DNA of 64,000 bases, from the IMG/VR virus record IMGVR_UViG_3300020123_000589, positions 32,001 to 96,000 of that record; one strand, 5' to 3'. The DNA is from a virus. Below, piece by piece: positions 1,412 through 38,363 of this stretch (position 1 is the stretch's first letter; every line of letters begins with the position of its first letter). The translations under genes and the position numbers were made by a program. A model generated the notes under the pieces. The model was not told the DNA's origin and did no database searches. It was given only the letters and a program-made list of their open reading frames with translations.

Positions 1412-2470
1412 ATGAATTGGATTTCAGAGATGTTCGAAAATAAAGGTATAACCAAAGAAGCATCTACAGATGCTGCTCAAGAATTTCAAAAGAAAGTAAA
1501 AGCTTCTGGATGGGTTGAAGGTGCAATGGGTATTGATGAAACTTCCATAATCAAAGAAGCTGATGCTAAAATCGAAGCAGAGCTAAAAGTTCGTGACGAG
1601 TTGACCAAGGAAGCAGCCTATGAAGCTTTCCAAACAACTGAGGAAACCCTTAAACAAGATTACGCCAGGGACGCTTCTATATTGTCAGATTTTACTTTAG
1701 CATCCATGATCGCAGAAATGCGTGGACACGCTAAACAGGATTTTATGGAGAATGCAACAGAGTATTTTGAAAAGGCAAAGAAAGATGTCAAATCAGATCG
1801 CAAAGCTGCTGAGAAAGAACTTCTAGAGGGCACGGGAATGTCAGCTCAACTCGACTGGCGTAAATCTTTTGCTGATTATAAGAAAGATGAAACTCCTAAA
1901 CAGGCTACTGAGAAGGAACTTTACAATCCTAAGCTAAAAGATGTCAATGACGATCTTTCTAAGGGTGGAAAGGTTGATGCCTACGCTGAAACTGATGAAC
2001 AACACGCAAAAACTATGTTGGGCATTGGCCGTGAGGAGAAAGAGCGAACAGATGTTACAGCACAACCTGGAGAGATCCAGAAGGATGCCGCTCTCGTCCG
2101 TGACCCAGATACCGAACTCAAGGTTGGAACAATCATCCGTCTAGCTCGTTCCATCATGAGCCACGAAGGGCAGATTCTTAATGAAGGCACAAGCTGGGAA
2201 ATTACAAATATAGATGGATTTCATTATCGTCTTTCAGCTAATGGCCAAACACACGTAATCAGTTCTCATGACACACCAAAGTTTAATAAAATTGCTTCTC
2301 AAGAAATTGAGAATCACGCAACCAAAGAACAAATTATAACAAAACTAGCCGAAATTAATTCACCTTGGGCAGTAGTGGTTGATAAAGACGGAAAAGAAGT
2401 TGTAGCCCGTATTGCTGATGAACAAGTTTCAAAAGAATCTGAAGAAGAGTTAAAAGATTTAAATAAATAA
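1412..2470 (+). CDS. charged putative head-internal protein with K-x-A motifs
   Basis: SD AGGAG; repeated TKEAS/IKEAD/TKEAA/QKDAA/NKIAS; SH3-like segment LKVGTIIRL. Confidence 0.6.
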   Translation: MNWISEMFENKGITKEASTDAAQEFQKKVKASGWVEGAMGIDETSIIKEADAKIEAELKVRDELTKEAAYEAFQTTEETLKQDYARDASILSDFTLASMIAEMRGHAKQDFMENATEYFEKAKKDVKSDRKAAEKELLEGTGMSAQLDWRKSFADYKKDETPKQATEKELYNPKLKDVNDDLSKGGKVDAYAETDEQHAKTMLGIGREEKERTDVTAQPGEIQKDAALVRDPDTELKVGTIIRLARSIMSHEGQILNEGTSWEITNIDGFHYRLSANGQTHVISSHDTPKFNKIASQEIENHATKEQIITKLAEINSPWAVVVDKDGKEVVARIADEQVSKESEEELKDLNK

Positions 2471-2515
2471 GAAGTTGTCCCCTCCCCATTAAAAATATTG
2501 TAAAGGATACCTATT

Positions 2516-4108
2516 ATGGCTATTATTATACGTTCCGTCACCAACAATACACCTTATCTACTCACTTTAAAGGTTCCAAGTCTAGAAGCAAATCTTTCTC
2601 CAGTATCTGTTGCACCGTCAGCAACATTGGATCTTCTTTCAGTTGTTACCGAAGACGACCTGATTGCCATGCAACTTTATTTGGAAGGAATGGTTTCTAG
2701 AGGAAGTCTAACTGTTGCAGCTACGTTTGATACAGCTACATTAGAAGAGGGTTATAATGGTGGAGGTGGCGGCGGAGCTAATACGACGTTAAGTAATTTA
2801 ACGTCACCCACAGCACTAAACCAAGACATTCTTCCAGCTTCTGATGGTAGTCGATCTTTAGGAAGTTCTTCAGTACAATTTGGTCAACTCTATACTTACA
2901 ATGTTATTTCTAATAATGATGATTTGGATCTTACCTCAGCATTTAATGTTTATTTAGCTTCAGGACCCTCATCCGACATTATATTAAATGCGGGTTCAGG
3001 GCATATTAATGTAGATACACATAATATTACAAATATGGCAGACCCCGTTAATCCCCAAGACGCTGCCACAAAGAATTACGTTGATACGCATAGTGCAGCT
3101 CCCGCCGGAAATCCAAATGATATTCAGTTCAATAATGGTGGAGCTTTCGGTGCAAATGATGTTTTTTTCTGGGATAACAATACAGAAACGTTAAATGTTC
3201 CAAAAACAGGAATTGTAATTAGTCCGTTGGGTGGTGGCAATTCAGATGGATCAATTGGGGTTGATAATGGCCACAATCTTCAAATTGCTGCAAGTAATAC
3301 TAATTCTGCATCGTTAATTTTATTTGGTTTTACTCCTAACATGTTCTTAAATCCAACAGGAGCATCGGGTGTTAATGATACAAGTTCTTCTAATACTGCC
3401 GATCCTTCAGCAGCCTGGGATATTCAATCAACTACAAAAGGACTACTTCTCCCACGTCTAACAACAGTTCAAAGAGACGCTATAGTTTCTCCAGCAACAG
3501 GTCTTGAAATTTATAACACCGATACTAATCAGGATGAATATTATAACGGAACTACCTGGAACGCAATTGGAAATACAGCAGTTGCAGGTGCAAATACTCA
3601 GCTTCAATTTAATGCCAGTGGGAGTTTTGGTGCAGATTCCAATCTTGTATGGGATAATACGAACAAGGTTTTAACTGTTACCACTGGAGATTCACAGTTT
3701 TATGCTATTAGTGCCTCTCCCGCCATAAAAATTCTTGGACACGCCTTATCGCCGTCTGCCGAGTTAGATTTTTATAAGAGCGATAATAGTTTTGCTTTGG
3801 GATCTATTTTCACCGATGAAACGACAAATAACTTTGCCATTGCTGGTGGTAATTCAGCGGGGGATATTGTTATCAGTCCTTTTTCGGCTAAGGGTGTATT
3901 AATTAATAGTAACTCTTCTGCACATCCAGATGCGAGTGCAATGTTTGAAATAGATTCTACAACACAAGGTTTTCTCTCACCTAGAATGACAACGGTGCAA
4001 AAAGATGCAATAGCTTCTCCCGCTGAAGGATTAACAGTATACGATATAACACTGCATAAATTAAGTGTTTGGACTGGAGCAGCTTGGGAGACTGTAACAT
4101 CGGCGTAA
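2516..4108 (+). CDS. virion fibre/decoration protein
   Basis: Gly/Thr/Asn-rich; DPVNPQDAATKNYVD, IQFNNGGAFG and two PRxTTxQ(R/K)DAI repeats. Confidence 0.7.
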   Translation: MAIIIRSVTNNTPYLLTLKVPSLEANLSPVSVAPSATLDLLSVVTEDDLIAMQLYLEGMVSRGSLTVAATFDTATLEEGYNGGGGGGANTTLSNLTSPTALNQDILPASDGSRSLGSSSVQFGQLYTYNVISNNDDLDLTSAFNVYLASGPSSDIILNAGSGHINVDTHNITNMADPVNPQDAATKNYVDTHSAAPAGNPNDIQFNNGGAFGANDVFFWDNNTETLNVPKTGIVISPLGGGNSDGSIGVDNGHNLQIAASNTNSASLILFGFTPNMFLNPTGASGVNDTSSSNTADPSAAWDIQSTTKGLLLPRLTTVQRDAIVSPATGLEIYNTDTNQDEYYNGTTWNAIGNTAVAGANTQLQFNASGSFGADSNLVWDNTNKVLTVTTGDSQFYAISASPAIKILGHALSPSAELDFYKSDNSFALGSIFTDETTNNFAIAGGNSAGDIVISPFSAKGVLINSNSSAHPDASAMFEIDSTTQGFLSPRMTTVQKDAIASPAEGLTVYDITLHKLSVWTGAAWETVTSA

Positions 4109-4112
4109 TAAG

Positions 4113-4304
4113 TTGAGGTTGTTAGCTATGCTTTGTGACAAGGATAATGTCCCGTTAAAGATTGGTGACACTGTTACAAAGGATGGCTGTCTTTATATTG
4201 TTCGAGACGTTGTGGTTTATGAGTTGGCAGTAGAATTGGTATGTGAGGATAAATTAACAAGAAATTATAAATCCTTTCAGCCACGAGATGTAATGAAAAT
4301 TTAG
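4113..4304 (+). CDS. small hypothetical protein
   Basis: DKDNVPLKIGDTV motif; real start probably ATG 4128 after GAGG. Confidence 0.55.
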   Translation: MRLLAMLCDKDNVPLKIGDTVTKDGCLYIVRDVVVYELAVELVCEDKLTRNYKSFQPRDVMKI

Positions 4305-4316
4305 AGGGTAAATAGA

Positions 4317-6314: not shown

Positions 6315-6336
6315 GAATTTATAAGAGGATAATTAT

Positions 6337-9300
6337 ATGCTCGATAAACTAGCTGGTTTGGCAACTCAGATACGCGATTTGGAACGCAGTCTTAAAGAGA
6401 TGGATACTAAGAAAGCAAATCCCACAAAGGTTAAAGAGATTACAGATGTAATCAAAGACCTGAAGAGTATGCTTGAAGAAAAAAAGCAGAAGAAAGAAGA
6501 GCGTAGAAAAAAGAAAGAAGAATCTGCCAAAGCTGAGCCAAAAGTTGAAGCCACTGTTCAGCCTACCGAGGTTGTTAAAGAATCTGCTCCAACTCCTACC
6601 GAAGAAGTAGTAAAAGAAGCTGATGTAAATAAATTTGCAATTGATTCTAAAGTGGAACCTATTCGCGGAACACCTGGAAGTTGGGGTGTCGTTATTCGTG
6701 AGGCAGGAATTAATGGAGATCCTCTTTGCTACGTGAAATGGCACGAAGGTACACTTAAGGAAGCCCACGGTGAATATGGTGCGTATTATCCAAGTGATTT
6801 GCGATTGAAAGCTGAAGTAATAGCTGAAGCTAAGGACCCAACAGATTACGTACCTCGTGAACAATTATACAATCTCGAAGCCGATCTTAAATCCAACTAT
6901 GAGAAAATGATTTCTGATTTACAGGAAGAGATCAAAACAGCCCAAGACAAAGGTGAATATGCTTGGGTTGGAAGGCTGGAAGAGAAGCTTGCTGATGCAC
7001 AAAAAGCTTATAAAGAGAAGTTTAGTGAGAAACACGCAGATTCACAATTTAAATGTGAAAACTGTGGTTCCGAACTTGGACCTCTTGGGCAATCCCATTT
7101 AGAGAATCTTCCAGGTGGAGAACAAAAGTGGACTTGTAATAAAAAGAAAGCAGAAGATGAAAATGGTTCTGGTGGAACTACACGTCTTAAAGTAGTTGAT
7201 CAGAATCCTCCATATGATAAAGATCCTCAAGAGAAATCAACAGGATATGGCGGTGATCGTCCAATGGGTGCTATGATCGCTCCTAATAGTGACGAAAACT
7301 CTTTACCTTTGGAATCTTCTTTAAATAAAGATGCAACACACACTCTTAAAATTAAGAGTCTCGATGATGCTCAAGCCGAGTGTTCAGAAGGTGATTGGCA
7401 TTTTAGTGGCACAGGGGCTAGAACAAAAGAAGAACTTGAAGAACAATTTAAGAAACATACACATAAGAAAGCGTCTCTAAAATTTGCCGACCTTGATCTA
7501 GACTCCATAGATAAACGTTGGGCTCTTTATGTTGATGGAAAGCTTGCTATTCGCACCCTCACCCGCTCTAAGGCAGAACGCATTGCTAAAGAAAGATTCC
7601 CAGAGCAAGTAGCTGCTGGTAAGTACGAAATTAAACGAGAAGATCATACACCCGTAGAAGCTTCTTTAGACAAACAAGCTATCAACATAACTGTAGGCGA
7701 AAAGCTTTTTGTTGTTAATCCTTTAGCTAAAACAGCAGATAACGAGTATTGCTACGATGTCAATTTAGCTAATGGTTCTAAACTGTTTAAAATTACTTCG
7801 AAAGAAGAAATGGGACAGGAACATCTCACTTATGTTATTGGCACAGAGCTTGGACAGAAGAAAGAAGCCAAAAATAAATGTGTAATTTGTAATATGGAGT
7901 TTGATACATGGCCAGAGTATGATGCACATAAGAAAGAAAAACATAGTCCAAAGATGGCTAAACTTACATCCAATCTCGCCTTTTTAAAGAAAGGTTCATT
8001 TGTTTCTATTCTAGATATTGATAATACTAAAAAGCAAGTTAAGTTTGCTTCCTTGGATGGTTCACTTAGAGGGTGGGCACCAATGCAAAAGTTTGCTACT
8101 ATGGATGTTCCAGAAGCTAATTTAATTGATCATGAAGGGCATAAAGATGAAGTATTGGCTGACAACGGTGGGAAAGAGATTCTTGTAATTTGCCCAGCCG
8201 GATCAGTTAATGTTGAGTGGCGAACTATTGAAGCTCCTCCAGCTACACCAGAGAGTTTGAATGATATTGAAGCAGCGGGACGATTGAAAGTCGGAGATCG
8301 TGTTCGTGTGTCGGAAGGTTCTGGACTTGAATCTGGGGTGACTGGAACCATCGTTTCTATGTGGGAATTTAACTCAAATATTGGAACAAATGAACGAGGG
8401 GTTCCAAATATTGAAGGATATTATAAACCCGTAGACTGGTCACGAGAAGTTCCTCTAAAACTTGATGATGGTTCATACATAACGATGTTTAAGAACAGAG
8501 TATGGCCAGTCAATCCTGATGTAACAGCCAAAGCAGAATTCCCAGGTGGGCAATGTGCTGGATGTGGTAAAGATCTTCCAACTGTTTGGGGCGAAACTTA
8601 TTGTAAAGAGTGCTCAGACAAAAAAGGTTTGCCACAGAAAAAAGCTGATGAAGAAATGCCAGAAAATGAACAATCCGAAGAGGATATTTATATTCATGAT
8701 GAACGTGGGCAAACTATTGCCTCAAGCCCCGCTCATGGTATTATTGCTAAACAAATTGGTGATGATTGGGAAATGCTTTATGCAGATATCGATCAGTGGA
8801 TGATTGACAATAATTTTTTTCCATCCGTTTGGTGGGTAAGTGACCACGGAAATGTTCATAAAGCAGAAAGTTTTTACGAGTGGACATCCAATAAAACTAA
8901 AACAGCATCATTAAACAAAGATGCCCACATTCGCCACGAAGATGGAAAATGGGTTATTTATAGTCATGACTTTAAAAAGAAGCTTGGAACATATGATTCT
9001 AAAGAAGCCGCAGAGAAACGCTTAAAGCAGATTGAATACTTTAAACATGAAGGATCTTTGCAGCCACTCTCGAAGAAAGAAGCAGTACAAAAAGAGGCTC
9101 TTGAGAATCAGCCTTGCGATGAGTCTGGATGCAATGAACCAGCCGTTCAATACGGTCATGGTGGTGTATGGTGTGCTAAACATAAAAAATCTTCTAATAA
9201 AGAAGCTTCATCTGAAGTTCCTATGCCAGCAGATAAATGTGAAGAATGTGGTAAGGAACTTGGTCCAGAAGCATTCCTTTCCAAATGGCCAGTTTGTGGT

Positions 9301-9843
9301 AAATGCACAAAGAAACGCCACGAGAAAGCTTTGGGTAAACATAAGAAAGCCGATCAAGATATTTCTTTGGAACAACAGGTTCAAGGATTTCGAGATCGCA
9401 TGAATGCTGTAACCGAAAGATTGGCTAACCCCCCTGCCAAAACAGCCGATTTAGAAACAACTCAGGATCTATCTAATGTGGATGTTAAGGATCTTTCCGA
9501 AGGTATTCTTCACATGATTGATATGATCGAATCTAAAGTGGGAGAGAATGTTTCAGCCGATCCAGAACTTCATCCAATGCTTGAGGATCTTGAGAATAAG
9601 GTTTACGAGATTGAAATGAAGCTTGGAATTAAACCCGAACTTCCCGAACATGAGAAGGCAGAGCCCGAACATAAAGAGATTGTTGAAGAAGTAGAAAAAG
9701 AATCTGCTGTTGAAGTTAAAGCCGATGATGTTAATACACCACCGCAAACACTTCCACCTACAGGATTCAAATATGCTTGGGACCCCAAGAACATGGCTTG
9801 GATTTTAGTTCAGATTACTGGTGCTCCAGGTGGCGGCTACTAA
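6337..9843 (+). CDS. large multi-module (polyvalent-like) putative head cargo protein
   Basis: 1168 aa; several CxxC zinc modules, SH3-like LKVGDRVRV and an HIRHEDGKW module, separated by K-x-A linkers; SD GAGG. Confidence 0.65.
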   Translation: MLDKLAGLATQIRDLERSLKEMDTKKANPTKVKEITDVIKDLKSMLEEKKQKKEERRKKKEESAKAEPKVEATVQPTEVVKESAPTPTEEVVKEADVNKFAIDSKVEPIRGTPGSWGVVIREAGINGDPLCYVKWHEGTLKEAHGEYGAYYPSDLRLKAEVIAEAKDPTDYVPREQLYNLEADLKSNYEKMISDLQEEIKTAQDKGEYAWVGRLEEKLADAQKAYKEKFSEKHADSQFKCENCGSELGPLGQSHLENLPGGEQKWTCNKKKAEDENGSGGTTRLKVVDQNPPYDKDPQEKSTGYGGDRPMGAMIAPNSDENSLPLESSLNKDATHTLKIKSLDDAQAECSEGDWHFSGTGARTKEELEEQFKKHTHKKASLKFADLDLDSIDKRWALYVDGKLAIRTLTRSKAERIAKERFPEQVAAGKYEIKREDHTPVEASLDKQAINITVGEKLFVVNPLAKTADNEYCYDVNLANGSKLFKITSKEEMGQEHLTYVIGTELGQKKEAKNKCVICNMEFDTWPEYDAHKKEKHSPKMAKLTSNLAFLKKGSFVSILDIDNTKKQVKFASLDGSLRGWAPMQKFATMDVPEANLIDHEGHKDEVLADNGGKEILVICPAGSVNVEWRTIEAPPATPESLNDIEAAGRLKVGDRVRVSEGSGLESGVTGTIVSMWEFNSNIGTNERGVPNIEGYYKPVDWSREVPLKLDDGSYITMFKNRVWPVNPDVTAKAEFPGGQCAGCGKDLPTVWGETYCKECSDKKGLPQKKADEEMPENEQSEEDIYIHDERGQTIASSPAHGIIAKQIGDDWEMLYADIDQWMIDNNFFPSVWWVSDHGNVHKAESFYEWTSNKTKTASLNKDAHIRHEDGKWVIYSHDFKKKLGTYDSKEAAEKRLKQIEYFKHEGSLQPLSKKEAVQKEALENQPCDESGCNEPAVQYGHGGVWCAKHKKSSNKEASSEVPMPADKCEECGKELGPEAFLSKWPVCGKCTKKRHEKALGKHKKADQDISLEQQVQGFRDRMNAVTERLANPPAKTADLETTQDLSNVDVKDLSEGILHMIDMIESKVGENVSADPELHPMLEDLENKVYEIEMKLGIKPELPEHEKAEPEHKEIVEEVEKESAVEVKADDVNTPPQTLPPTGFKYAWDPKNMAWILVQITGAPGGGY

Positions 9844-9855: not shown

Positions 9856-10608
9856 ATGAAAGAAATGCCCACGGCAATCCTGCCAGCAGATTCTGAATAT
9901 GTTTATGTACCCGACACGGACAGTTGGAATGTTCAGAAAAAGTCAGGTAATAAAAAACTGTCCAAAAATGATTACGGCAAGGAAGCAATTTGTCCAATTT
10001 GTGGTGAATGGAAACCTTCCAAATATTCCCCCGCTGAATTACAAGAAATAGATTGGGCATGTTCCGACTGTCTTAGTAAACATCCTAAAGAAGTACAGGA
10101 ATTAGAACAAAAGGAAGAGATGGGAGAAGCTCCCCCTACGCTTCCATCAAAACCTACTCCCCCAGAAAATCGTGGTCAAAAAGAAATTACCAAATTTGAT
10201 CCAGAATTTGAATGGCTCCTTAAGCTTGTAAATGTTGCAATAAAAGCAGGAGTTCCCGCCTCTGAAATTAAAGCACTTTCTCAATCCCACCCTTTCAAAA
10301 CCATTGATGATGCTGGCGATTTAGCCGCGCAGATTTGGACACTTGCTACCGAAAAATATCAGATACCGCGAGAATATTTGATTAAGAAACTACCTGAAAA
10401 AAGATCCAGTTTAAAGACTGCTTATGAAGGTGGTTATCCTACCGAAAATGATGCTACAACTTGGGGTACTGCTGCTCCTGGTACTTATGCGTATCAACCA
10501 AATATTACACACGATGCTCCTACAGGATTACGTGAAGGTGATACTGGGGAACCGATCACCATTTGTCCTAAATGTAAATCAGATAGAGTTGAGCAGTGTG
10601 ATGATTAA
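9856..10608 (+). CDS. multi-module protein; probable N-terminal part of a gene split by an HNH insertion
   Basis: CPIC..CSDC zinc ribbon; ends with half a zinc ribbon (CPKC) just before the stop. Confidence 0.6.
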   Translation: MKEMPTAILPADSEYVYVPDTDSWNVQKKSGNKKLSKNDYGKEAICPICGEWKPSKYSPAELQEIDWACSDCLSKHPKEVQELEQKEEMGEAPPTLPSKPTPPENRGQKEITKFDPEFEWLLKLVNVAIKAGVPASEIKALSQSHPFKTIDDAGDLAAQIWTLATEKYQIPREYLIKKLPEKRSSLKTAYEGGYPTENDATTWGTAAPGTYAYQPNITHDAPTGLREGDTGEPITICPKCKSDRVEQCDD

Positions 10609-11482
10609 TTCTAAAATTACAGACTTAACAGGGAAAATATTTGGTAGACTCACAATTATTAAATTAGATAAGGTTGTAAATTATTGTTCTTATTGGTTAG
10701 CCAAGTGCTCTTGTGGAAACGTCATAAGTGCTCGAAGAAGTAATCTTATAAATGGACATATTCAATCTTGTGGATGTTTGTCGCATGAATTGCGCGTACA
10801 ACGTGGGAAAGACAATAAAATACATGGGATGGAAGGAACAAGGTTTTATAGAATTTGGCATGGAATGAAAGGTAGATGTTTAAATCCAAATGACAAGGAT
10901 TACCCAAAGTATGGTGGAAAGCTTTGTGAGAGGTGGTTTGAGTTTCTTAATTTTAGAAACGATTTATACAACAGCTATGTAAAGCACGTAGAAGAGTTTG
11001 GGGAGGAAAATACCAGTTTAGACAGGTTTCCTAATCAGATTGGCAATTATGAACTTAGCAACGTTCGCTGGGCGACTAGAGAAGAACAACAGCAAAATAC
11101 CAGAATGTCTGCAAAAACGGGTAATTACGAAAAACATATTTATTGGAAAAATCGGATTCAAGATACAATTTGTCAAGCATTAAAACGTCAAACAAATAGC
11201 CCAATACTTGAACAATATGTAGGATGCAATTTGAATGACCTTCGTAAACACATTGAATCCCAATTTCAAGAAGGAATGACTTGGAATAATCATGGACGTA
11301 GCTACGGGCAGTGGCAAATTGATCACATTATTGGTTGTAATAATTTTGATCTTTCTAATGAGGCAGAACGAAAGCAGTGTTTCTATTATGTTAACTTACG
11401 ACCGATGTGGAAAGAAGATCATGTAAAAAAGAGTGTTCGTAGATTACAAGTTACAAAAGAGATTGCCAATGCCAAAATTTAA
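10601..11482 (+). CDS. HNH-type homing endonuclease
   Basis: DLTGKIFGRL..CSCG..SCGC, W.GMK.RC, SLDR...NYELSNVRWAT, GMTWNNHG..WQIDH..NLRPMW; likely ATG 10601 overlaps the upstream stop. Confidence 0.85.
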   Translation: MINSKITDLTGKIFGRLTIIKLDKVVNYCSYWLAKCSCGNVISARRSNLINGHIQSCGCLSHELRVQRGKDNKIHGMEGTRFYRIWHGMKGRCLNPNDKDYPKYGGKLCERWFEFLNFRNDLYNSYVKHVEEFGEENTSLDRFPNQIGNYELSNVRWATREEQQQNTRMSAKTGNYEKHIYWKNRIQDTICQALKRQTNSPILEQYVGCNLNDLRKHIESQFQEGMTWNNHGRSYGQWQIDHIIGCNNFDLSNEAERKQCFYYVNLRPMWKEDHVKKSVRRLQVTKEIANAKI

Positions 11483-13700: not shown

Positions 13701-13729
13701 TTGACTCCTTTCGATAAGTGTGGTATAAT
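13701..13729 (+). promoter_or_regulatory. sigma70-type promoter, probably giving a leaderless deoC mRNA
   Basis: TTGACT-17 nt-TATAAT with extended -10 TG; ATG follows 7 nt after the -10 box. Confidence 0.75.
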
Positions 13730-13736
13730 AGAGAGA

Positions 13737-15097: not shown

Positions 15098-15125
15098 CAG
15101 AAAAGAATTGAAAAGGAGATACGAA

Positions 15126-26100: not shown

Positions 26101-27073
26101 CAGGATTGATTGGGTTGCTTTGGCTAATCCAACACAAGAGAATGTTGAATCTGCTCAAGATCCTAAGATTGAAAAGAAAGCAGCCGTTTTGCCAGAAGTT
26201 GTAAAACAAGAAGTTATGTCCATGACTCCTGATATGAATATGCGAGGAGCAACCGCGTATCGTTTCAGTGTTGAGGGTGACAAAATTTATCGTGGTGAAT
26301 GGCGTATGGGATTTGAAAAGGATGATTTTGGTCCGTATCAATTTATTTATGATTTAGAAACAAAAGAATTTAAAGAAAATCCAAGTTATCAACAGTCGGC
26401 ATTCGCATCGTTGAAACAAGCAGCAGAACCTCTCCTCGGACCAACGGGTGAACCATTGCCAGCGAAACCAGAGACTCCAACAACTTTTAAAAAGCATCTA
26501 AAAGCACCACCCTCAACAGACCGCGAGAAAGCTCAACCCGCTTCAATTGAACAAGCCCAGCTTGTTAAAGAAGTAGAAAGCTCCTTAACTAGTCTTGAAT
26601 CCATCAAATCGATGGTGGAACAAGCCAAGGCAAAGCTTAATGCCGAAATCAAAACAATTGAAGAGAAGGGTGGCAGAGTACAAATAGAAGGCGAACTCAA
26701 AGAGAAGATTGATCGTCTTTCTAAGATGGTTGAAGCTGTGCAAAATCAAATGATTTATGCTGGAGATACAATGGTTCGTTTGGTTCAAGAAACTAAAGAA
26801 AAACCTTTTAAACCTGGCGATAAATGGAAAATCGAGAAACTTACTGAACGCCTTTCTAAATATGAGGATGCCGCAGCATTTTTAAAGAAAGCAGAAGATG
26901 GAGCGCAACACTTAGCTACATCAGAAGATATTCGTGAATTGTATTTCTTTCCACGTAAGATGAGCAAACTTCATAAATCAGCTGGATTTTTAGAAACACT
27001 AGACTCCGTGTATAATGATGTACTAGAGGCTTTAAAATTAATTATTGGAAGTGAAGAACCAGCGGCGGTATAA
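23174..27073 (+). CDS. 1299-aa multi-module putative head cargo protein
   Basis: SD AGGAG; SH3-like KEGDRVYV, two CxxC..CxxC ribbons, coiled-coil C-terminus; many K-x-A linkers. Confidence 0.62.
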   Translation: MKNLLASWFRNLTAFDDGAVKKEFSIVDPTAAQADGLNTVILAVSPSDGNSPTMVSLYFDGTGVKLFEKKYQDDQDAQTEMSAMAHDLEEAATLSKEGKTEEAKNLATSLFDKYKRSSDPLSNEQPTPTMTQASQNAPLVYKGFSIKKLEDGSWQASQDELAFTADSIDSVKAKVDNMLRKAYGKKLAKRAEIVMQNLFFSTPDEAMEYQEKMKKLQGPEGGEGKPLWEQMSGEEQIAPSNETAPEEDNELAPPSLSFDRIEKDKAKSDKDIGKRIKEQVKTEVESALEQKSASVFGPDQEDLVEALRKNGRNWDEIKKIFTKELSYNEDDTTVFLDSIRQKEEGGMSEGLPMAPKPPEDLVSPETHDKLVKEIEDKSEPKPEPLPLADEIARADNAEIRKVAREMTEDEKLSWDKTQVGEFGRNKDGSPRPSLEEVTKRRHEKERKEKENKSKQSSQSKVALNPLQEPPAVGQNPGQPLAAPVEEAPTFDSPVPPSQDSNPEPEFLEAPKEGDRVYVMGDYETGQDGFEGTMVSDYTSKGDDYAVIAKDDGENAEVALHRVVKASQKKVAQVYYEKVASVTDSSRGRNWKVTYYDKNDKVISSHIIKDRTEAEAEREATGDMPSGCEDWSMMPVQSKKAANEDRWTKLVYECPSCETQFTESKKPMSACPICRTPADKIKLIKEAEGLPEGQNRLRTINPHNRFCDKCGDKLDPSNPSPRCAHCSKAKSFIPPLTEHDLQEKDADLEVEGKGNEDVIRMFIDNSFPKDKMPVWGTPNLKITKYPNGWALVNYQTPILYRGNNNPDVVVFNTHNYSVTTKKIQNQIRSMFRGQSVKETDEAGIYSAIDQSNLAVPEPEFGTELQSLHESALKIKADLEHEGEIAIYFHKEGIEKKASDDSAFEGNGWCRVWIQDDEISSDKRYPEILKLADETTRIDALKDLARELAHEALRLADSAGAKVGVQAWFESLHPSDHDRIDWVALANPTQENVESAQDPKIEKKAAVLPEVVKQEVMSMTPDMNMRGATAYRFSVEGDKIYRGEWRMGFEKDDFGPYQFIYDLETKEFKENPSYQQSAFASLKQAAEPLLGPTGEPLPAKPETPTTFKKHLKAPPSTDREKAQPASIEQAQLVKEVESSLTSLESIKSMVEQAKAKLNAEIKTIEEKGGRVQIEGELKEKIDRLSKMVEAVQNQMIYAGDTMVRLVQETKEKPFKPGDKWKIEKLTERLSKYEDAAAFLKKAEDGAQHLATSEDIRELYFFPRKMSKLHKSAGFLETLDSVYNDVLEALKLIIGSEEPAAV

Positions 27074-29532: not shown

Positions 29533-31227
29533 ATGAGCCGACCTAAAGGCAGTAAAAATATTTCTAAACAAGCCGAGAAGCAGGTTATTATTGGTGAGGG
29601 AATTAGTGGGTCCACTTCATCAAGTGGGATGGATGCTGGTCTGACCAAAATTGGTTCTCTTGCTAAGACTGCCAATTATGGCGTATCTCAGACTTCTTCA
29701 TTTTTCTACAGTCCTGAACTCACAACTGAGAGCTGGCTTCTCCCTAAATCACGTCAAGAAACTTGCCGTTGGGCGCGTGTATTCTATAATTTAAATCCTA
29801 TTGTGCATAGTGTAATTAACATGCATTCTAAGTATCCTTTTTCCAAATTTGAACTCGTTTGTGGAGATCCTACGGTTAAACAGTTTTATGAACAGATGGC
29901 ATTCAATAAGAATTTCAATTTGACCGATTTTATTGGACAAGCTTCGTTAAGTTATGAGAAATTTGGTGAGGCTCTTTGTTTTGGTACTATGGAGAAAAAG
30001 GGAGACAAATTTCAATGGACGAAGTTTGTTCTCCTTGAACCAGAACTTATCGATGTCAAATCAGATATGATGAGTGGTAAGCAAACCTTTGAGATGGTTC
30101 CAACAGCCGAACTTAAACAGCTTGTTACTTCTACTCGTCCTGAAGATGCAGATGCTCAAAAACAGTTAGAAGAGTGGTCCCCAGAAATTGTTAAAGCCAT
30201 TAAAGAAAATAGAAATATTCGTTTATCAGATGAGAACGTTTCTATCATTGCTAATCTTACTGATCCCTCAGCTACTCGTGGAACAAGCCGTATTCAATGT
30301 CTATTTAAAGATTTAATTTTAAATGATTTTATTCGTTTGGCACAGATGGCCTACGCCCAACGATATGTGTTTCCAGTTGAAATGTGGTCCATCGGGGATA
30401 TTGCTAACAACATTATTCCAAGTACAACAGATTTGCAGAATTGGAAACAGCTCATCAATCAATCAATTCAACAACCTCCATTCTCTCTCGTTACTCCTCC
30501 TTACGTTAAGTATGAAGCTTTGAGTACCGCAGGAAAAACATTTCCTGTAAATACAGAATGGTATGAATATACATTAAGTCAGTTGATGATTGGATTGGGT
30601 GTTAATAAGAATTTAATGACGGGGGATGGCCCTTCTTTCAGTGCAGGTCTTAAAGGTATGTCTCTTCATCGTTTGATGATGGAATATAAATTCGTAAGAG
30701 ATAAATTTGAAGATTGGATTATTCACAGATTTTTTGAACCCATTGCTGAAAAGAATGGTTTTTATACGACTGAGAATGGCGAGAAAAAATTAATTTTACC
30801 TGAAATTTCTTGGAAAAAATCTCTTGATATTGAGGATGCAGAAGCAGAACGCGACATGTTTGTAAAAATGTGGGAATCTGGAGTTATTAGTACAGAAACT
30901 TTGTTTACTAAATTCCCCACTCTTGATTTTAAAACGGAACAAAAGAAATTAGAACTTGAACGTGGAACAATTTATGATAAGGGTGATGGAGCAAGGTTGC
31001 CTGAGAAGATCCATAAATCAGTTGTAAAACCTGGAGGAGATACAGGATTTGGTGGAAAAGGCGGTGGTGGTGCACCAGGAGCTATTGTTCCAATTAAGCC
31101 CGTCAAACCAGTTAAACCAGGAGAAGAGCCAGAAGCTGGAGAAATTCCAGTTCCAGGTGCTCCAGAAAGTACCCCAGAAGGTGGTGGAGAAGCTACAGCT
31201 CCCACTTCCATCGCTCCAACAGTATAA
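29533..31227 (+). CDS. portal protein
   Basis: position after terL; 564 aa; W.R.FY..NP.V..VINMHS.YP, FGEA, RGTS.I motifs; Pro/Gly-rich tail. Confidence 0.8.
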   Translation: MSRPKGSKNISKQAEKQVIIGEGISGSTSSSGMDAGLTKIGSLAKTANYGVSQTSSFFYSPELTTESWLLPKSRQETCRWARVFYNLNPIVHSVINMHSKYPFSKFELVCGDPTVKQFYEQMAFNKNFNLTDFIGQASLSYEKFGEALCFGTMEKKGDKFQWTKFVLLEPELIDVKSDMMSGKQTFEMVPTAELKQLVTSTRPEDADAQKQLEEWSPEIVKAIKENRNIRLSDENVSIIANLTDPSATRGTSRIQCLFKDLILNDFIRLAQMAYAQRYVFPVEMWSIGDIANNIIPSTTDLQNWKQLINQSIQQPPFSLVTPPYVKYEALSTAGKTFPVNTEWYEYTLSQLMIGLGVNKNLMTGDGPSFSAGLKGMSLHRLMMEYKFVRDKFEDWIIHRFFEPIAEKNGFYTTENGEKKLILPEISWKKSLDIEDAEAERDMFVKMWESGVISTETLFTKFPTLDFKTEQKKLELERGTIYDKGDGARLPEKIHKSVVKPGGDTGFGGKGGGGAPGAIVPIKPVKPVKPGEEPEAGEIPVPGAPESTPEGGGEATAPTSIAPTV

Positions 31228-32501: not shown

Positions 32502-32502
32502 A

Positions 32503-32829
32503 ATGGAAAATTGGATAAACAATCTATCGGAAAAACACAGCATTCACAAAATAGCCGTAGAGACTGAAGTAAGTTTACCCACCTTCGAAAGATTACTAAA
32601 TGATGGATATACAATTGCTATTTGGAAGACAATTAATCCCATTCCTTGTATGCGTTGCCAAGATTTAGAAGCACAACAATTTAATTTTGCAGATTTTGTA
32701 AACAGTACGACGCATGAGGCCCCGATTTTTTCCCATTCGCACCCAAATTGTCATTGTGTAGTAATTTGCAGTGGCGACGGACTTCCTACAGTCCAGATTG
32801 ACTGGACTGGAAATATTTCAGAGGCTTAA
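32503..32829 (+). CDS. MuF/SPP1 gp7-like head morphogenesis protein (minimal)
   Basis: PCMRC...HSHPNCHC resembles the C-x2-C...HPNCRC signature; lies between portal and protease. Confidence 0.6.
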   Translation: MENWINNLSEKHSIHKIAVETEVSLPTFERLLNDGYTIAIWKTINPIPCMRCQDLEAQQFNFADFVNSTTHEAPIFSHSHPNCHCVVICSGDGLPTVQIDWTGNISEA

Positions 32830-32832
32830 TTT

Positions 32833-35800
32833 ATGGCACTATTTAAACGTGGGACTATTCTAAAGATTAATAAAACAGCCGCATCTGCCACAGAGCTTAT
32901 TATTGATCGTCCTCTAACTGAAGAAACAAAAGTTGTTGAGGGTAAGAATCCTGAATTTTTATATTTTGTAGCAAAAGCCATTGCCGCTGGTGACGAAGGT
33001 CCATTGGGCAAGAATGGTTCTAGAGAGTATAATTATAACGGAAATGGCGATTATTTTCCTAAGAAAGAAATTGAAGGTGCTTACCAAACTTTTATAGGAA
33101 AGGGAATTTATCTCGACCACAATGCTTCAAGTGTTATGTATTCTGTTGGGAAGATTATTGATGCTTTTCCTACGGTAGATCCAGACAATAAAGAATGGAG
33201 CATTTCCTGTCTTGCTAAGATTGACAGAAAGCTTCATCCTGAAATTGCTCGTAAAGTTGAAACTGGTGAATTGAATACCGTTTCCATGGGTTGTTCTTGT
33301 GGAGAATCCAAATGTTCAGTTTGTGGAACAATCCTTCGAACGGACGATGACCCTAAGTGTGAACATCTATCTCCTGGCAAATTGATGCACGAGTTTCAAG
33401 CAGAAATTGATATTCCAGAGTATGGAATTAATAAGGGCCAAACAGTAAAAAGTTTTGCAATTAATTCACAAATCAACTTCAATGAGTTGAGTTTGGTTGG
33501 TGTACCTGCATGGCCCCGCGCATTTGTTACCACAATTTTAAGTAACTTAAAGGCTAATATCAGTAAGAAAGCTTCTTTAACCAAAGAAGAACAACTTGAT
33601 TTAGTAGCGCAGTTTGAAAAGCTTGTAGACACTTTAGATTCTACTACAAAAGAACAGGTCAAAGCCGAATTTTGCGGTTGCCCAATTGTCAAGGAGAATA
33701 ACATGTCCGATACCCCCCAGAAACAATCGAACGATGAAGTAACAGATTTATTGAAGAAAGTGAGTGCTTATGAGATGGAGAAGCTTGAGAATTATATCCA
33801 ACATAAGACTCGCAAAGCAGAGGCAACCGCTGCCGCTGATACAAAGACCAATGATTCCAATTGGATGAATGGTATACTTGAGAAAGCAAAAAATACGGCT
33901 GCTGGTAAAGTATTTGCAAGAACGATTCAGCGATTGGCTGAGGAAGAAAAGAAGCCAGAGTTTGTATATGAGAAGGAAGCTACGTCCGAAACTACTCTTA
34001 AACCAGTTAAGAAATCTTCTCTCACAGCCATGTTTACAGTAAATAAAGAAGAACCAATGAAATCTTCTTGGGCTCTTTTAGACGGTAGTGATAAAGTTAT
34101 TTTAGATGCTTCACTCAATGAGATTTGGGGAGATCAGTTTGAAGCTAATCAAGATTTTGCAGTTAGTGAGGAATATGGTAGAGCAATTGCCGCACGATTT
34201 TTGGACCCTAAACTTGGTGGCGTTGAGAAACTTGCCGACCTTTGGGATGTTTCATATAAATTAAATAAAGAGGCTGACATGAATAAATCATCCGAACACG
34301 GCGAATTTTTCAAAGCTAAAGATTTCTTTGTACCTGGAAGTGATTCTTCTAATAAATACACTCCAGAGGAGATTAAACATATGCAAGAAAAAGAACACAC
34401 AGAAGCCAAAGGCAAAAAGGTTGAAGCTGGGCATATAGATGAAAAATTTGATATTACGGAAGGTAAGGGAAAGCTCTTTGATGCAAAGAATTTTTTTGAA
34501 CCTGGGTCAGATTCCTCAAATAAATGGAATGATAAACGAGTGAAGATTGAATACTCAATTAGCAAACCTGCTGGTGAGTTTTTCAAACCAGGCTCTGATT
34601 CCTCAAATAATTATAAAGCCACGGATGTAAAAATGGAATACAACATTCCAGGTAAAGCACCAGAAGCAGGTCAGAAAGGCCCAGCAGCCCCTAAACATGA
34701 AGATATTAAAACTACGTATGATTTTAAGAAACCTGAAGGGGAATTCGTTAATACAAATAAGAAAACCAAGCTTGACGAAGAACATGCCAAATCCGAAGAA
34801 AAAATTAAAACAGGATACAAAGGCGATTTGATGTACGATGAAGAGAAAAAGCTGGACGAAAAGGGTGGAAAGAAAGAATCAGCCCTTAAATCAGCTGCTA
34901 AGACTGTAGGTGATTCTCCTGAAAGTTCCGTAAAGGGCGATATCTATCCAGAAAAGAGTCCAAAGACTTCTGGAGATGAACCAGAGTCTTCTTATAATAA
35001 AACAGCCAAAACCGTTGGTGATGCTCCAGAAGGTTCTGTTGAAGAAAGTCAGTATCCCAAAGCTTCTGAGCCTAATAAGGACCCAGAGACATCAGCAAAA
35101 GATATGGAATATAAGCACGAAAAGAACATGACAAAAACTCCTGATTCTTCAGTTCAAGAGAAAATGCCAGCACCCGCTAAATCAGATAAAGATCCTGAGA
35201 CATCTGTAAAAGATACAAAATTTGAAAAACATCCTGATTTAACTAGTAAGCCTGAAACTTCCTCAAAAGAAGATCAGTACCCTACACCAGCTAATCCAGA
35301 TAAAGAACCAGATTCTTCTGTTCAAAAGGGTTCCAATCTAAAAGTTGCTAAAACTCCTGCTGGCTGGGAACACGCAGTTCGTGAGCTTAAGAAAACCGAT
35401 GTTGATAATCCATGGGCAGTAGTTAATTGGATGAAAGATAAAGGATATACACCACATAAGAAATCAGAGCTAGATATGAAAGCTGATGCTGAAATGTGTG
35501 ATAAGTGTTCAATGCCTCTTCATGAATGCGCTTGCATGGCCGCTCAGGAAAATATGGCTCCATCAATGGATGCTCCTAAACCAGAAATGGGTTCTGCCTT
35601 CGATAAAGTTGAAGAGAAACTTACAATTGGCGATGGATATGATGCTTCTAAGGATAAAGAAACTAAAGAGATTATCATTTCTAAAGATGGTAAGGAAATG
35701 AAGCGTCTCCCAGATGGTTTCGGTTCTGATGTTGCTTCTGTTACAAGTCTTCTAAAAGCTGTTCTTGGTCTTCCAACAACAGAAGAGAAGAAAGATGAAA

Positions 35801-36387
35801 AACCAGGAGAAACACTTTCTCCAGTTGAAGAAACTGTTGAAAAAGTAGAAGTTCATCCCGAAATGTCTTCTCCCTCTGAAATGCCTTCTATGAAAGCTTC
35901 TGCTCTAGAAGTAGAATTAAATAAGAAAGCTGCTGAACTAAAAGCTAAGGAAGAAGAGATTATTAAGAAAGAAACGGCTATTCTTGCAAAAGAAGCTGAA
36001 ATTAAGGCTGATAAATTCCAAAAAGCCGTCGCTTCCCGCACAGATCGTTGCCGCAGAGTGATTGAAGCTATGCTTGATAAAAACGTCCTATCAATGGATG
36101 ATGCAGTATTGAAGGAAAAACTACAAGAAGGAACTTATCTTTTGGATGCACGTAAAGCTGCCCTTGATCACGCCATTAGTGCAAAGCTAAAAGAACTTAT
36201 GGCATCCAATGATGTTGAATTGGCTGCAATAGAGAAAACTGTAGATGGCATTAAGCTTCCTGAACAGGAAGTTTCTAAGAAAGCCAATCGTATTCCATTT
36301 GTTAAATGGGATGCAATTCCAACAGAAGATGATGAAATTAAAGGCATCTTTGATCAAATGGGAAAACGCAGTCACTGGAATCAATAA
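32833..36387 (+). CDS. prohead maturation protease fused to a long scaffold region
   Basis: N-terminal NGDYF...TFIGK.IYLDHN...GKIID...VSMG...ELSLV..PA (HK97/herpes-type His/Ser); C-terminal repeats and coiled coil; precedes decoration gene and MCP. Confidence 0.75.
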   Translation: MALFKRGTILKINKTAASATELIIDRPLTEETKVVEGKNPEFLYFVAKAIAAGDEGPLGKNGSREYNYNGNGDYFPKKEIEGAYQTFIGKGIYLDHNASSVMYSVGKIIDAFPTVDPDNKEWSISCLAKIDRKLHPEIARKVETGELNTVSMGCSCGESKCSVCGTILRTDDDPKCEHLSPGKLMHEFQAEIDIPEYGINKGQTVKSFAINSQINFNELSLVGVPAWPRAFVTTILSNLKANISKKASLTKEEQLDLVAQFEKLVDTLDSTTKEQVKAEFCGCPIVKENNMSDTPQKQSNDEVTDLLKKVSAYEMEKLENYIQHKTRKAEATAAADTKTNDSNWMNGILEKAKNTAAGKVFARTIQRLAEEEKKPEFVYEKEATSETTLKPVKKSSLTAMFTVNKEEPMKSSWALLDGSDKVILDASLNEIWGDQFEANQDFAVSEEYGRAIAARFLDPKLGGVEKLADLWDVSYKLNKEADMNKSSEHGEFFKAKDFFVPGSDSSNKYTPEEIKHMQEKEHTEAKGKKVEAGHIDEKFDITEGKGKLFDAKNFFEPGSDSSNKWNDKRVKIEYSISKPAGEFFKPGSDSSNNYKATDVKMEYNIPGKAPEAGQKGPAAPKHEDIKTTYDFKKPEGEFVNTNKKTKLDEEHAKSEEKIKTGYKGDLMYDEEKKLDEKGGKKESALKSAAKTVGDSPESSVKGDIYPEKSPKTSGDEPESSYNKTAKTVGDAPEGSVEESQYPKASEPNKDPETSAKDMEYKHEKNMTKTPDSSVQEKMPAPAKSDKDPETSVKDTKFEKHPDLTSKPETSSKEDQYPTPANPDKEPDSSVQKGSNLKVAKTPAGWEHAVRELKKTDVDNPWAVVNWMKDKGYTPHKKSELDMKADAEMCDKCSMPLHECACMAAQENMAPSMDAPKPEMGSAFDKVEEKLTIGDGYDASKDKETKEIIISKDGKEMKRLPDGFGSDVASVTSLLKAVLGLPTTEEKKDEKPGETLSPVEETVEKVEVHPEMSSPSEMPSMKASALEVELNKKAAELKAKEEEIIKKETAILAKEAEIKADKFQKAVASRTDRCRRVIEAMLDKNVLSMDDAVLKEKLQEGTYLLDARKAALDHAISAKLKELMASNDVELAAIEKTVDGIKLPEQEVSKKANRIPFVKWDAIPTEDDEIKGIFDQMGKRSHWNQ

Positions 36388-37082: not shown

Positions 37083-37103
37083 TTAATAGATAAAAAGCTT
37101 TAA

Positions 37104-37138
37104 ACAAGATTGACCGCGAGGTTGACTTGTATATTTTT
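37104..37138 (+). terminator. hairpin with U-rich tail between decoration gene and MCP (attenuator or stability element)
   Basis: ACAAGATTGACC-GCGA-GGTTGACTTGT followed by ATATTTTT. Confidence 0.4.
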
Positions 37139-37152
37139 CAAGGAGAATTATT

Positions 37153-38363
37153 ATGTCAGAACAAGTTACCAAAACCGCTTCTCCTGATGACATTTATGCC
37201 GCAGGGCTTAGTGCCGCTCAGGTTGAAGAAAAGCTAACTCGTTTGATGAACAGCCCAGGCGGATTGCAGAAGATTGCTCAGCAAATGTTGAGCCCTCTAA
37301 AGCGCGAACTTCTATATGAAGGTCGTATTCGCCAGTTGTTCCAGACGTACAAACTCGCTCTAGGCGAGGAAGCCGTGTTTGACGCAGACTTAGACGTTCC
37401 AGCAGCATCCATTTCCGTTCATGGTTTGCCACAGGAACTACAGGTCGAAGCAGATCGTATCCGCGTCGAAACTGGCCCCCTAGCAACCCGTCCCTTGATC
37501 CGATGGAACGAATCCAACTTCCGAAAGTACGATGTTCTTAATCGTACCCAAGAACGCGCAAAAGCTTCCATTATGCTTCAAGAAGACACAAAAGGTTTTC
37601 AGCTCATTGACTTTGCTGCTGGTCTAACAAATCAGACCCCAGTAAATTCACTATTTGGAACCTCTGCTGCAACCAATAACCCAACCGTGCTACCTGCGAC
37701 TGGTAAATTGGACATGCAGACACTAGTAACAGGTATCGTTACACTACGTTCAAAGTTGCTCGTAGCTTCAAAGATTTATTTGAACCCACTACGAACCGCT
37801 GATCTCATGCTCTTCAACACAACCACATCAGGAACAGGCGGAGCCGGAATTTTCGCTCCTAACTTCCAGGATATGGCATTGAAAGCAGGTCGCGTAGGTG
37901 GAATCTGGGGCGTTGATGTCCTAGAGTCCGTCGTTGTTCCTACAGCTAACACATACGTTCTAGCTCCTGCGGATTATCTTGGCGTTCTCGCCGTTCGTAC
38001 TGATATTTCCGTCGAGACAATGAAAGATGTTAACCAGATGGCCGACATTTTCGCAATCTGGGAAGATATCGGCTTCCTCATTCGCTACGCTAAATCGATA
38101 GTAAAAATCGTAGTTTCTTAAGTCCCTTGGCGTAGTAAAATTGGGCCGTATCGGTGAAACTCTTACCAAGTAATGTTGGAGACAATACCGAGGAAAGACT
38201 TGAAAAATTTCAAGTATCCGTAGAGACTAAACGCCCGACTCCGAAAGGATGAAGTTATAGTCCGACCTTCACAGAAATGTGAAGAGGTTTCCAGAAATGT
38301 GAAATCCATCTCGAAAGAGAAAGTAACAAATCGAAGGGCATTGTTAAAATTGTCGTTAGCTAA
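37153..38363 (+). CDS. major capsid protein; exon 1 37153..38091, exon 2 38334..38363 (the unspliced frame ends at 38121)
   Basis: position, size (322 aa), strong SD AAGGAG, distinct high-expression codon usage; P-domain-like G.IWG.DVL.S.VVP. Confidence 0.85.
38092..38333 (+). ncRNA. group I self-splicing intron, 242 nt, no internal endonuclease ORF
   Basis: P1: exon CTACGCT pairs with GGCGTAG (38129-35), U.G at the splice site; P10: CCCTT/AAGGG; P4 TCGGT/ACCGA; P7 GACTA (38225)/TAGTC (38258); GAAA-capped 3' hairpins; terminal G 38333. Confidence 0.9.

Follow-up and report, generated by a model that had tools for sequence, protein, structure and literature searches.

A Lys-x-Ala/Gly peptide shared by head proteins and modular cargo proteins of an uncultured soil phage, a predicted recognition site of its maturation protease

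The 64,000-nucleotide (nt) stretch of DNA analysed here (the window; bases 32001–96000 of a single 151,359-bp contig, IMG/VR record IMGVR_UViG_3300020123_000589) comes from an uncultured soil phage, and encodes, together with the portal and major capsid proteins, a prohead protease and a series of mostly large Lys/Glu/Ala-rich proteins (here called cargo proteins) in which a short peptide, Lys-x-Ala in its simplest form (K-x-A, written K.A in counts), recurs. An initial annotation of the window had proposed that a prohead protease cuts packaged polyproteins at this tripeptide into small effectors for injection. Our comparative sequence analysis supports a motif that is non-random, selected at the level of the peptide and common to the canonical substrates of such a protease and the joints of the modular proteins. 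On balance, we consider it probable that [L/I/M]-x-[K/R]-x-[A/G], usually followed by Ser or Ala and often by Leu, is the recognition site of the phage's own maturation protease, which would also cut the cargo proteins. The main comparative material consisted of 59 related IMG/VR loci (capsid proteins 48–99% identical); a megablast search with 10 kb of the head module gave no match, and there was no near match among cultured phages.

Motif statistics

Counts were compared with shuffles of each protein that kept its composition. The eight cargo proteins (8–13% Lys, 6–10% Ala) contain 87 K.A tripeptides against 45.1 ± 6.1 expected (observed/expected ratio (O/E) of 1.93), whereas the portal, the 108-residue protein, the protease–scaffold protein and the capsid protein together contain 20 against 18.0, the 39 tail, baseplate and fibre proteins 21 against 25.6, and the 84 other Lys-rich proteins of the same genome 69 against 83.8. 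With O/E values of 0.82–0.84 in tail proteins and the rest of the genome, K.A is slightly avoided by the phage's proteins, and enrichment is found only in the cargo set. The rarity of the motif in fibre, sheath and tube proteins, previously noted by eye, holds as a low count but mostly reflects low lysine content, with an O/E of 0.82 and no specific depletion.

When all gapped patterns of three to five residues were counted without bias, K-x-A forms ranked directly after the zinc-ribbon pattern CxxC, led by L.K.A (20 against 4.5), K.AS (18 against 4.5) and I.K.A (15 against 3.5), with K.A.L and K.A also top-ranked. The motif is often tandem (A-S-L-x-K-x-A). Its extended form, [AGS]-[SN]-L-x(0,1)-K-x-[AG], occurs 14 times in the head module against 0.49 expected (about 30-fold) and is absent from the remaining 32,677 residues of this genome (1.1 expected); four related phages show a 6–9-fold enrichment of it in their head regions. 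The suspected enrichment beyond composition is therefore borne out for the tripeptide and for the extended motif alike. All instances listed in the initial annotation are present, namely SSLNKDA (327), ASLKFA (379), ASLDKQA (442) and ASLNKDA (857) in the 6337 protein (proteins are named by the first nucleotide of their reading frame), SSLKTA (184) in 9856, ANLKQA (305) and GSLNKQA (541) in 11433, ASLKLA (295) in 16501, ASLKQA (1078) in 23174 and SNLKVA (834) in 32833. As the codons vary across the 14 extended sites (Ser is encoded by codons of both its families, Leu by four codons and Ala by all four), the peptide is conserved rather than a DNA repeat, which points to selection at the peptide level.

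A position-specific scoring matrix (PSSM) was derived from relatives only, using the N-termini of the protease and the capsid protein and the end of the protease domain, with the window and its three closest kin left out. Applied to the cargo proteins, it gave a 4–10-fold excess over shuffles, with 31 sites compared with 8.4 at a threshold of 6, 14 compared with 2.9 at 8 and 8 compared with 0.8 at 10; the corresponding values for the rest of the genome were 42 against 39.3, 10 against 11.8 and 3 against 3.1. The signal of the canonical substrates is thus present in the cargo proteins and nowhere else in the genome. Within the first 25 residues, [KR].[AG] is found in 8 of the 12 head and cargo proteins and in 34 of the 115 other proteins. 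The K-x-A specificity originally proposed is supported in so far as the motif is conserved and located at canonical sites, but the determinant is longer than K-x-A, reading [L/I/M]-x-[K/R]-x-[A/G], often with Ser-Leu after or before it.

The protease–scaffold fusion and its predicted head substrates

The protease gene (32833–36387) lies between the genes for the portal (29533–31227) and the capsid protein (37153–38121). The features of this part of the window are given below; here and throughout, an arrow marks the presumed cut.

29533..31227, + strand: portal protein (phrog_16240, E 8e-38)
32503..32829, + strand: 108-amino-acid head-module protein (weak Phage_Mu_F match)
32833..36387, + strand: prohead protease–scaffold fusion, 1184 amino acids (phrog_18299 head maturation protease, E 5e-15)
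32839..32883, + strand: predicted tandem sites at the protease N-terminus, L-F-K-R-G7↓T and I-N-K-T-A16↓A (from conservation)
33559..33579, + strand: predicted release-type site I-S-K-K-A247↓S-L (NISKKA247↓SLTKEEQ) at the end of the protease domain (from conservation and PSSM)
33703..36387, + strand: probable nested in-frame scaffold gene with start M291 (ATG at nt 33703; AAGGAG 6–7 nt upstream)
36271..36288, + strand: predicted maturation-type site V-S-K-K-A1151↓N (VSKKA1151↓NRI), 33 residues before the scaffold C-terminus
37153..38121, + strand: major capsid protein (phrog_2522, E 1e-35)

Judged by its predicted structure, the N-terminal domain of the 32833 protein (about residues 40–232, from which a Lys/Glu-rich helical scaffold extends to the C-terminus) is a prohead serine protease, in agreement with the initial annotation, and has the T4 gp21/herpesvirus assemblin fold of MEROPS clan SH. 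An AlphaFold2 (AF2) model based on 20 homologues is confident for residues 40–222 (core predicted local distance difference test (pLDDT) values of 76–95), and its best VIA-align match is T4 gp21 (5jbl_A; Z 11.6, root-mean-square deviation 2.7 Å, 141 of 165 residues), followed by the varicella-zoster, pseudorabies, cytomegalovirus, herpes simplex and Epstein-Barr proteases (Z 5–6.8). The fold call rests on VIA-align; Foldseek placed the same families first but weakly (E about 0.03), and no PDB sequence was matched at E up to 1 by a profile of the 20 homologues. Invariant in 20 relatives are H96, S151 (the VSMG Ser, previously named as the catalytic candidate) and H178; the stretch C161–H178 that follows the Ser is a zinc-ribbon insert (C161...C176, H178). 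In three relatives (L040:5095–9348, L055:3082–8025 and L057:2341–7047), the protease gene has a large insertion directly after SMGC (CFKAGT...) that looks like an intein in the active-site region.

The motif brackets this domain. At the N-terminus, K5 and G7 are invariant and I-x-[KR]-x-[AG]↓[SA]-[LF] is kept in 30 of 32 aligned relatives, down to 34% identity. The site at A247, which reads [IVML]-S-K-x-[AG]↓S-L in most relatives, has the top PSSM score in the genome (18.4) and falls between two helices where the AF2 model drops below a pLDDT of 50 (residues 245–247). The start at M291 lies 43 residues past A247; its AAGGAG is the same Shine–Dalgarno sequence that precedes the capsid gene, and AAGGAG and ATG are both kept in about 21 relatives despite differing coded residues. 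This nested start probably gives a separate 894-residue scaffold protein that is co-terminal with the fusion. Towards the scaffold C-terminus, the A1151 column is [KR]-x-A in nearly all relatives and is followed by a conserved C-terminal tail.

The capsid protein shares 29% identity with gp27 of Bacillus phage G, has more distant kin in cluster C mycobacteriophages and begins with a short leader, MSEQVTKTA↓SPDD (site V-T-K-T-A9↓S, nt 37165–37182). Its relatives carry MNDINKEA↓[AS]LEV, EKIEKEA↓SLYD or MNDKLNVEA↓SMEV at the same place, and the conserved core starts from about residue 19. The portal has a variable 47-residue leader, rich in Lys, Gly and Ser, that ends in the tandem K-I-G41↓S-L-A-K-T-A47↓N (nt 29647–29676); in related portals (48–57% identity), GKTA↓SLDKTA↓G, SKAG↓SIDKTA↓N, MQKTA↓T or IIKEA↓S stands directly before the conserved SFFYSPEL core. 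In the 108-residue protein, the leader is MENWINNL...I-H-K-I-A18↓V, and L-N-K-E-A↓A is kept in about 20 relatives; its earlier designation as MuF-like could not be upheld, as the Pfam match is weak (E 0.008) and below the cut-off. Each of the N-terminal instances recorded previously was found again (VTKTA-S in the capsid protein, INKTA-A in the protease, SLAKTA-N in the portal, IHKIA in the 108-residue protein and NLSKAA in the terminase). That the motif occupies the places where such a protease is expected to cut, and is conserved while its flanks diverge, counts for its being a cleavage site.

The 1412 and 32503 proteins and their orthologues also share the pattern M-(x)-N-W-[IL]-x-x-[LMF] before the first K-x-A (nt 1412–1465 and 32503–32556), which is a candidate capsid-targeting leader.

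Module joints in the cargo proteins

The cargo proteins of the window are as follows (K.A counts are observed against expected).

1412..2470, + strand: cargo protein, 352 amino acids (K.A 8 against 4.1; PSSM 10.5–11.9)
6337..9843, + strand: cargo polyprotein, 1168 amino acids (K.A 29 against 10.1; AF2 domains and linkers)
9856..13697, + strand: cargo polyprotein split by an HNH endonuclease open reading frame (ORF; 10424–11482); one uninterrupted 1479-amino-acid ORF in relative G001
15108..15557, + strand: small Lys-rich protein, 149 amino acids (G-S-L-S-K-I-A at nt 15432–15452)
16501..21870, + strand: polyvalent cargo protein, 1789 amino acids (PHROG and Pfam matches)
21981..23144, + strand: cargo protein, 387 amino acids (K.A 7 against 3.2; site at 300 with PSSM 13.8)
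23174..27073, + strand: cargo polyprotein, 1299 amino acids (K.A 18 against 11.0; PSSM 12.5–14.2)

The 6337 protein is composed of small beta or helical domains and zinc ribbons (at least 8 small domains) joined by low-confidence linkers, with extended motifs at nt 7315–7335, 7471–7488, 7660–7680 and 8905–8925. When it was compared with four complete or near-complete relatives, the closest was found to be without residues 378–439 and 647–856, and in the distant ones blocks are reordered or occur in other proteins. The edges of the deletions lie at KKA↓SLKFA↓ (377–384), ASLDKQA↓ (442–448) and KTA↓SLNKDA↓ (855–863), and modules are thus gained and lost together with a linker, in keeping with the earlier suggestion that new modules can be recruited by acquiring one. 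Over six cargo proteins, K.A occurs within 6 residues of 27 of the 73 clustered ends of homology blocks, against 14.7 ± 3.1 for random placement, and nearly every well-supported boundary coincides with a site (in the 16501 protein, 298, 407, 555, 622, 693, 883, 1431/1437, 1564 and 1695).

The 16501 protein combines a nucleotidyltransferase-like domain (about residues 14–204), a HAD/PNK-type phosphatase (about 299–409), a 2H phosphoesterase (about 627–810) and three copies of a repeat of about 135 residues containing YW[IV]DPxG. Its modules correspond to stand-alone genes in other phages, with edges at 15–204, 307–417 and 627–810, and the module edges abut sites at 298–300, 407–409 and 622–624. 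For the repeat, which starts with [YF]-W-[IV]-x-P-x-G and was compared in five phages, [KR].[AG] lies at most 16 residues upstream in 12 of 15 copies, and the other three have a variant ending in Ala. In the 23174 protein, I-E-K-K-A is present at 894 and 1001 and A-S-L-K-Q-A at nt 26405–26422, and block edges at 567–579, 899 and 1069–1078 coincide with sites. A tblastn search with this protein against 50,697 phage records gave no match, and Pfam detected nothing in the 1412, 6337, 11433, 21981 and 23174 proteins or the protease.

Most cargo proteins begin with a short leader that ends in the motif and is conserved in orthologues (MNWISEMF...ITKEA↓S, MLDKLA↓G, MQKKA↓N and ...LKKQA↓E). In the 1412 protein the leader is MNWISEMF...I-T-K-E-A17↓S, the leader and its K-E-A being kept in four relatives, and further sites are I-I-K-E-A and I-Q-K-D-A; the 21981 protein has a conserved N-terminal L-K-K-Q-A20↓E and internal sites. 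The two halves of the split gene (9856–10608 and 11427–13697), with motifs at nt 10405–10422, 12345–12362 and 13053–13073, are separated by an ORF in another frame that has an H-N-H-type motif; a search around the insertion with Rfam at gathering thresholds found no group I intron and only two tRNAs.

From upstream to downstream, the ClpP-family protease gene (204–860) is followed by the genes for the Lys/Glu/Ala-rich proteins 1412, 6337, 9856/11433, 15108, 16501, 21981 and 23174, then by those for the large terminase (27668), portal (29533), an HNH endonuclease (31842) and the 108-residue protein (32503), and finally by those for the 1184-residue protease protein (32833), a 162-residue protein (36594) and the major capsid protein (37153). 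Also inside the cargo cluster and kept in relatives are genes for a DeoC/LacD-family aldolase-like protein (13701–14444; Pfam E 1e-10) and a Cys-rich protein with an endonuclease VII-like PHROG match (14441–15097). Two tRNA genes (39244–39315 and 39912–39982) lie downstream of the capsid gene and of a GIY-YIG endonuclease ORF (38453–39232). Two Lys-poor fibre-like proteins (2516 and 4317) are interspersed among the cargo genes. Three Lys-poor fibre-like proteins (2516–4108, 40713–41294 and 52317–52895) are alike in their N-terminal ~50 residues (M..I.RS[IV]TN...L.VP....P....AP SATLDLLSV), which may be a common attachment module on different fibres.

Predicted processing, alternative explanations and known systems

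If the motif is the recognition site of the maturation protease, the following course of events can be envisioned. The protease would enter the prohead fused to the long scaffold, which would also be made separately from the nested start M291, and would free itself at the release-type site A247↓S248 and trim, at A1151↓N1152, the scaffold tail that would bind the shell. It would remove the 9-residue leader of the capsid protein and the ~47-residue leader of the portal, and would cut the 1412, 6337, 9856/11433, 16501, 21981 and 23174 proteins after their N-terminal leaders and at module joints. Zinc ribbons, small beta domains, the nucleotidyltransferase, the HAD phosphatase, the 2H phosphoesterase and the 135-residue repeats would consequently end as separate proteins in the head. 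We infer a cut after Ala or Gly, rather than after Lys, from the small residue at this position, the frequent Ser next to it and the analogy with assemblin.

Several observations weigh against this scheme. Roughly half of the K-x-A tripeptides are composition background according to the shuffles. The 6337 protein, modelled with AF2 from 24 sequences (mean pLDDT 58), resolves into about a dozen small folded units with low-confidence stretches between them; in these stretches bare K-x-A is not enriched (48% of sites against 43% of residues). Ten of the 29 K-x-A of this protein are located in confidently predicted helices or strands, close to the 10.1 that its composition would give, so that the bare tripeptide over-calls sites about twofold. 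The best-conserved one, K569-F-A571, is within a strand of a conserved small beta domain, and some conserved K-x-A are therefore structural. The notion that sites occur only in linkers was accordingly rejected for the tripeptide and is kept only for the extended motif; in the same model, all four extended motifs and most high-scoring sites are in low-confidence stretches. The motif was originally thought to mark module boundaries, and this is true of homology-block edges but not of bare K-x-A in the AF2 linkers of this protein. Some related capsid proteins have V or T in place of the Lys, at the third position before the cut (LNVEA↓S and KVTPA↓D), which indicates that other residues can take its place. 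The terminase is not a prohead component, yet SNLSKAA is found close to its N-terminus; the peptide earlier reported there is present, but its conservation is limited to closer relatives and it may not serve as a substrate site. The 32833 protein has 14 K.A against 13.8 expected, its scaffold part being without enrichment, and scaffold bodies across clades show little ([KR].A O/E 1.22). The initial annotation had counted this protein among the cargo strings, an assignment that we abandon, as the herpesvirus-like fused and nested layout identifies the rest of 32833 as scaffold, a role that the lack of excess K.A fits. The cargo proteins contain no known capsid-targeting domain, zincin-like metallopeptidase or MuF anchor detectable with Pfam or PHROG. 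Finally, the cutting, packaging and ejection or host delivery of the cargo pieces are all steps that we infer.

Three other explanations were considered. The motif may be functional without being cleaved, serving as a flexible joint or as a docking or targeting peptide (for example, for scaffold or portal binding) that travels with modules while the large proteins stay intact. Such proteins do exist, as some polyvalent proteins, the N4 virion RNA polymerase among them, are packaged without being processed (PMC5512222); moreover, several K-x-A sites are within folded elements, and the shared NW[IL] leaders of the 1412 and 32503 families could be targeting signals themselves. We regard this explanation as unlikely, because the same motif is found at the protease/scaffold junction, near the scaffold C-terminus and in the capsid-protein and portal leaders, all of which are cleavage positions in related systems, and because a small residue (Ala or Gly) followed by Ser fits assemblin-type specificity (PMC4498786). 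By far the least probable explanation is that the pattern is a by-product, without function, of Lys/Ala/Glu-rich helical composition or of repeated DNA. Although the proteins are Lys/Ala-rich and about half of the tripeptides equal the shuffled expectation, the composition-keeping shuffles are exceeded at z above 5, other Lys-rich proteins have an O/E of 0.82, the extended motif is found at about 30 times expectation, codons vary, and sites are conserved while flanks diverge.

The sites could also be cut by another enzyme, for which a host protease or either of two phage gene products, neither of them considered in the initial annotation, would be candidates.

204..860, + strand: ClpP-family protease gene (Pfam CLP_protease, E 4e-28), just upstream of the cargo cluster and also in relative G001
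15849..16499, + strand: HtrA/DegP-like S1 protease with a lipoprotein signal peptide (Pfam Trypsin_2, E 3e-24; PDB DegP/DegQ, E 2e-17)

In Staphylococcus phages, short capsid leaders are known to be trimmed by a host protease of the Prp type. The ClpP-family and HtrA-like genes are both nearby and are conserved in the head/cargo region of relatives (a further point against the prohead protease as the processing enzyme), the HtrA/DegP family prefers small aliphatic residues before the cut, and virions of phage G have been reported to contain ClpP and ClpX (PMC12484599). Nonetheless, ClpP is processive and not motif-specific, leaving its gene as a less specific candidate, and the motif lies on either side of the assemblin-fold protease, N-terminally and at the scaffold junction, which fits self-processing. 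The true start of the HtrA-like ORF (15627) is M75 (nt 15849), as deduced from an alignment with 18 relatives, all of which start MKK...L-[LS]-[SP]-A-C. The lipoprotein signal peptide present in every relative suggests that this protease is probably exported and would act away from the cytoplasm, the site of prohead assembly, so that a part in processing the contents of proheads is unlikely; it was set aside on this ground. Processing by another enzyme is, in our judgement, rather improbable, a little more so than a motif that is not cleaved. The HtrA/DegP-like protease is without PDZ domains and is conserved in the head/cargo region of all relatives examined.

Taking the motif to be a site of the prohead protease, we can compare the system with established ones. 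Processing of multiple substrates at three-position motifs is established in T4, phiKZ, 201phi2-1 and SPN3US, always after Glu, with many head proteins cut by T4 gp21 (L/I-x-E), phiKZ gp175 (S/A-x-E) and SPN3US gp245 (A-x-E, with a preference for Ser after the cut) (PMC9026906, PMC10052503). The system described here resembles those of T4, phiKZ and SPN3US in its gp21 fold, in the reuse of a short motif on the capsid protein, portal, protease and many internal head proteins, and in having multiple sites per substrate, N-terminal leaders and self-processing (here predicted). It differs in that Ala or Gly stands before the presumed cut, with Lys two and Leu or Ile four positions earlier, in place of Glu; in a capsid-protein leader of only 9 residues; and in substrates built as long chains of exchangeable modules, the sites being at the joints, in place of single proteins that each have one propeptide. 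The short N-terminal leaders ending in the motif recall the capsid-targeting sequences of T4 (PMC9026906), although the L/I-x-E motif of the latter is not matched.

The layout mirrors that of herpesviruses, in which a protease–scaffold fusion and a nested scaffold start are combined with a release and a maturation site, and Ala precedes the bond that is cut at both (YLQA-T and VQA-S in pseudorabies virus; PMC4498786). As in pUL26/pUL26.5, an N-terminal protease is fused to the scaffold, an in-frame start is nested within the gene, one site directly follows the protease domain and another lies about 25–40 residues from the C-terminus, and the presumed cut follows Ala, typically precedes Ser and has aliphatic residues upstream. 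Unlike assemblin, the phage enzyme is nearer to gp21 (assemblins score Z 5–6.8), has a zinc-ribbon insert and would require Lys; in addition, the scaffold is much longer (about 890 amino acids), and sites are also found on non-scaffold cargo.

The idea of packaged polyvalent proteins, in which two to fifteen unrelated domains share one phage polypeptide and which may be processed, goes back to Iyer et al. in 2017 (PMC5512222). The cargo proteins agree with them in being very large, in combining unrelated enzymatic or binding domains and in being encoded beside the portal and terminase (16501 and 6337 upstream of both), but differ in that no zincin-like metallopeptidase or MuF anchor was found and in that the prohead protease is the predicted processing enzyme, acting at a defined linker shared with the capsid proteins.

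Phage G, in addition to its homologous capsid protein (29% identity), has a homologous protease, and the motif is enriched in its neighbouring head-region proteins (15 PSSM sites against 5.3 expected in gp9–gp54). Its gp19 aligns with the protease and contains LGLVKTA↓AKVVKIA↓PKEDDFLYVRVRAVSAG, with EKVA↓S and LLKIA↓S after the catalytic domain; its portal (gp14) has QRKMA↓S before the conserved core, and gp13 and gp38 (small head-region proteins; L076) have near-identical leaders, MKRLISKTA↓A and MKRLIKKA↓S, that end in the motif. In contrast to the fusion described here, however, the phage G protease is a separate 300-residue protein without a long scaffold, and the 29 kb examined contain no comparable multi-module giants. 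Given that phage G is cultivable and shares the motif, the prediction can be checked there by mass spectrometry.

What is new is the combination of a gp21-fold protease having a Lys-x-Ala/Gly rule with a herpesvirus-like layout, and the occurrence of the same rule at the exchangeable joints of giant modular proteins. It is possible, although we put this forward only tentatively, that a general 'load and cut' rule operates in the clade that includes phage G, in which any module acquiring an A-S-L-x-K-x-A joint in a head-targeted chain would be loaded and then released by an assemblin-like protease with herpesvirus-like Ala↓Ser specificity. Such a rule would maintain a reshuffling library of injected enzymes and zinc-finger proteins, including enzymes that modify RNA or nucleotide signals, and would amount to a programmable capsid cargo system.

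If the cleavage-site reading is true, it defines a phage maturation-protease specificity for cutting after Ala or Gly rather than Glu. Its site logic and gene layout would mirror those of herpesvirus assemblin, extending the link between phages and herpesviruses beyond the fold to substrate recognition. Polyvalent proteins would gain a testable mechanism, in which the capsid protease, and not a built-in metallopeptidase, dissects them and the joint peptide explains their swapping. The reading further predicts the mature ends of the capsid protein, portal and scaffold and of some dozens of cargo fragments, and the code of leader and joint could be used to load foreign proteins into capsids, as has been done with the capsid-targeting sequence of T4.

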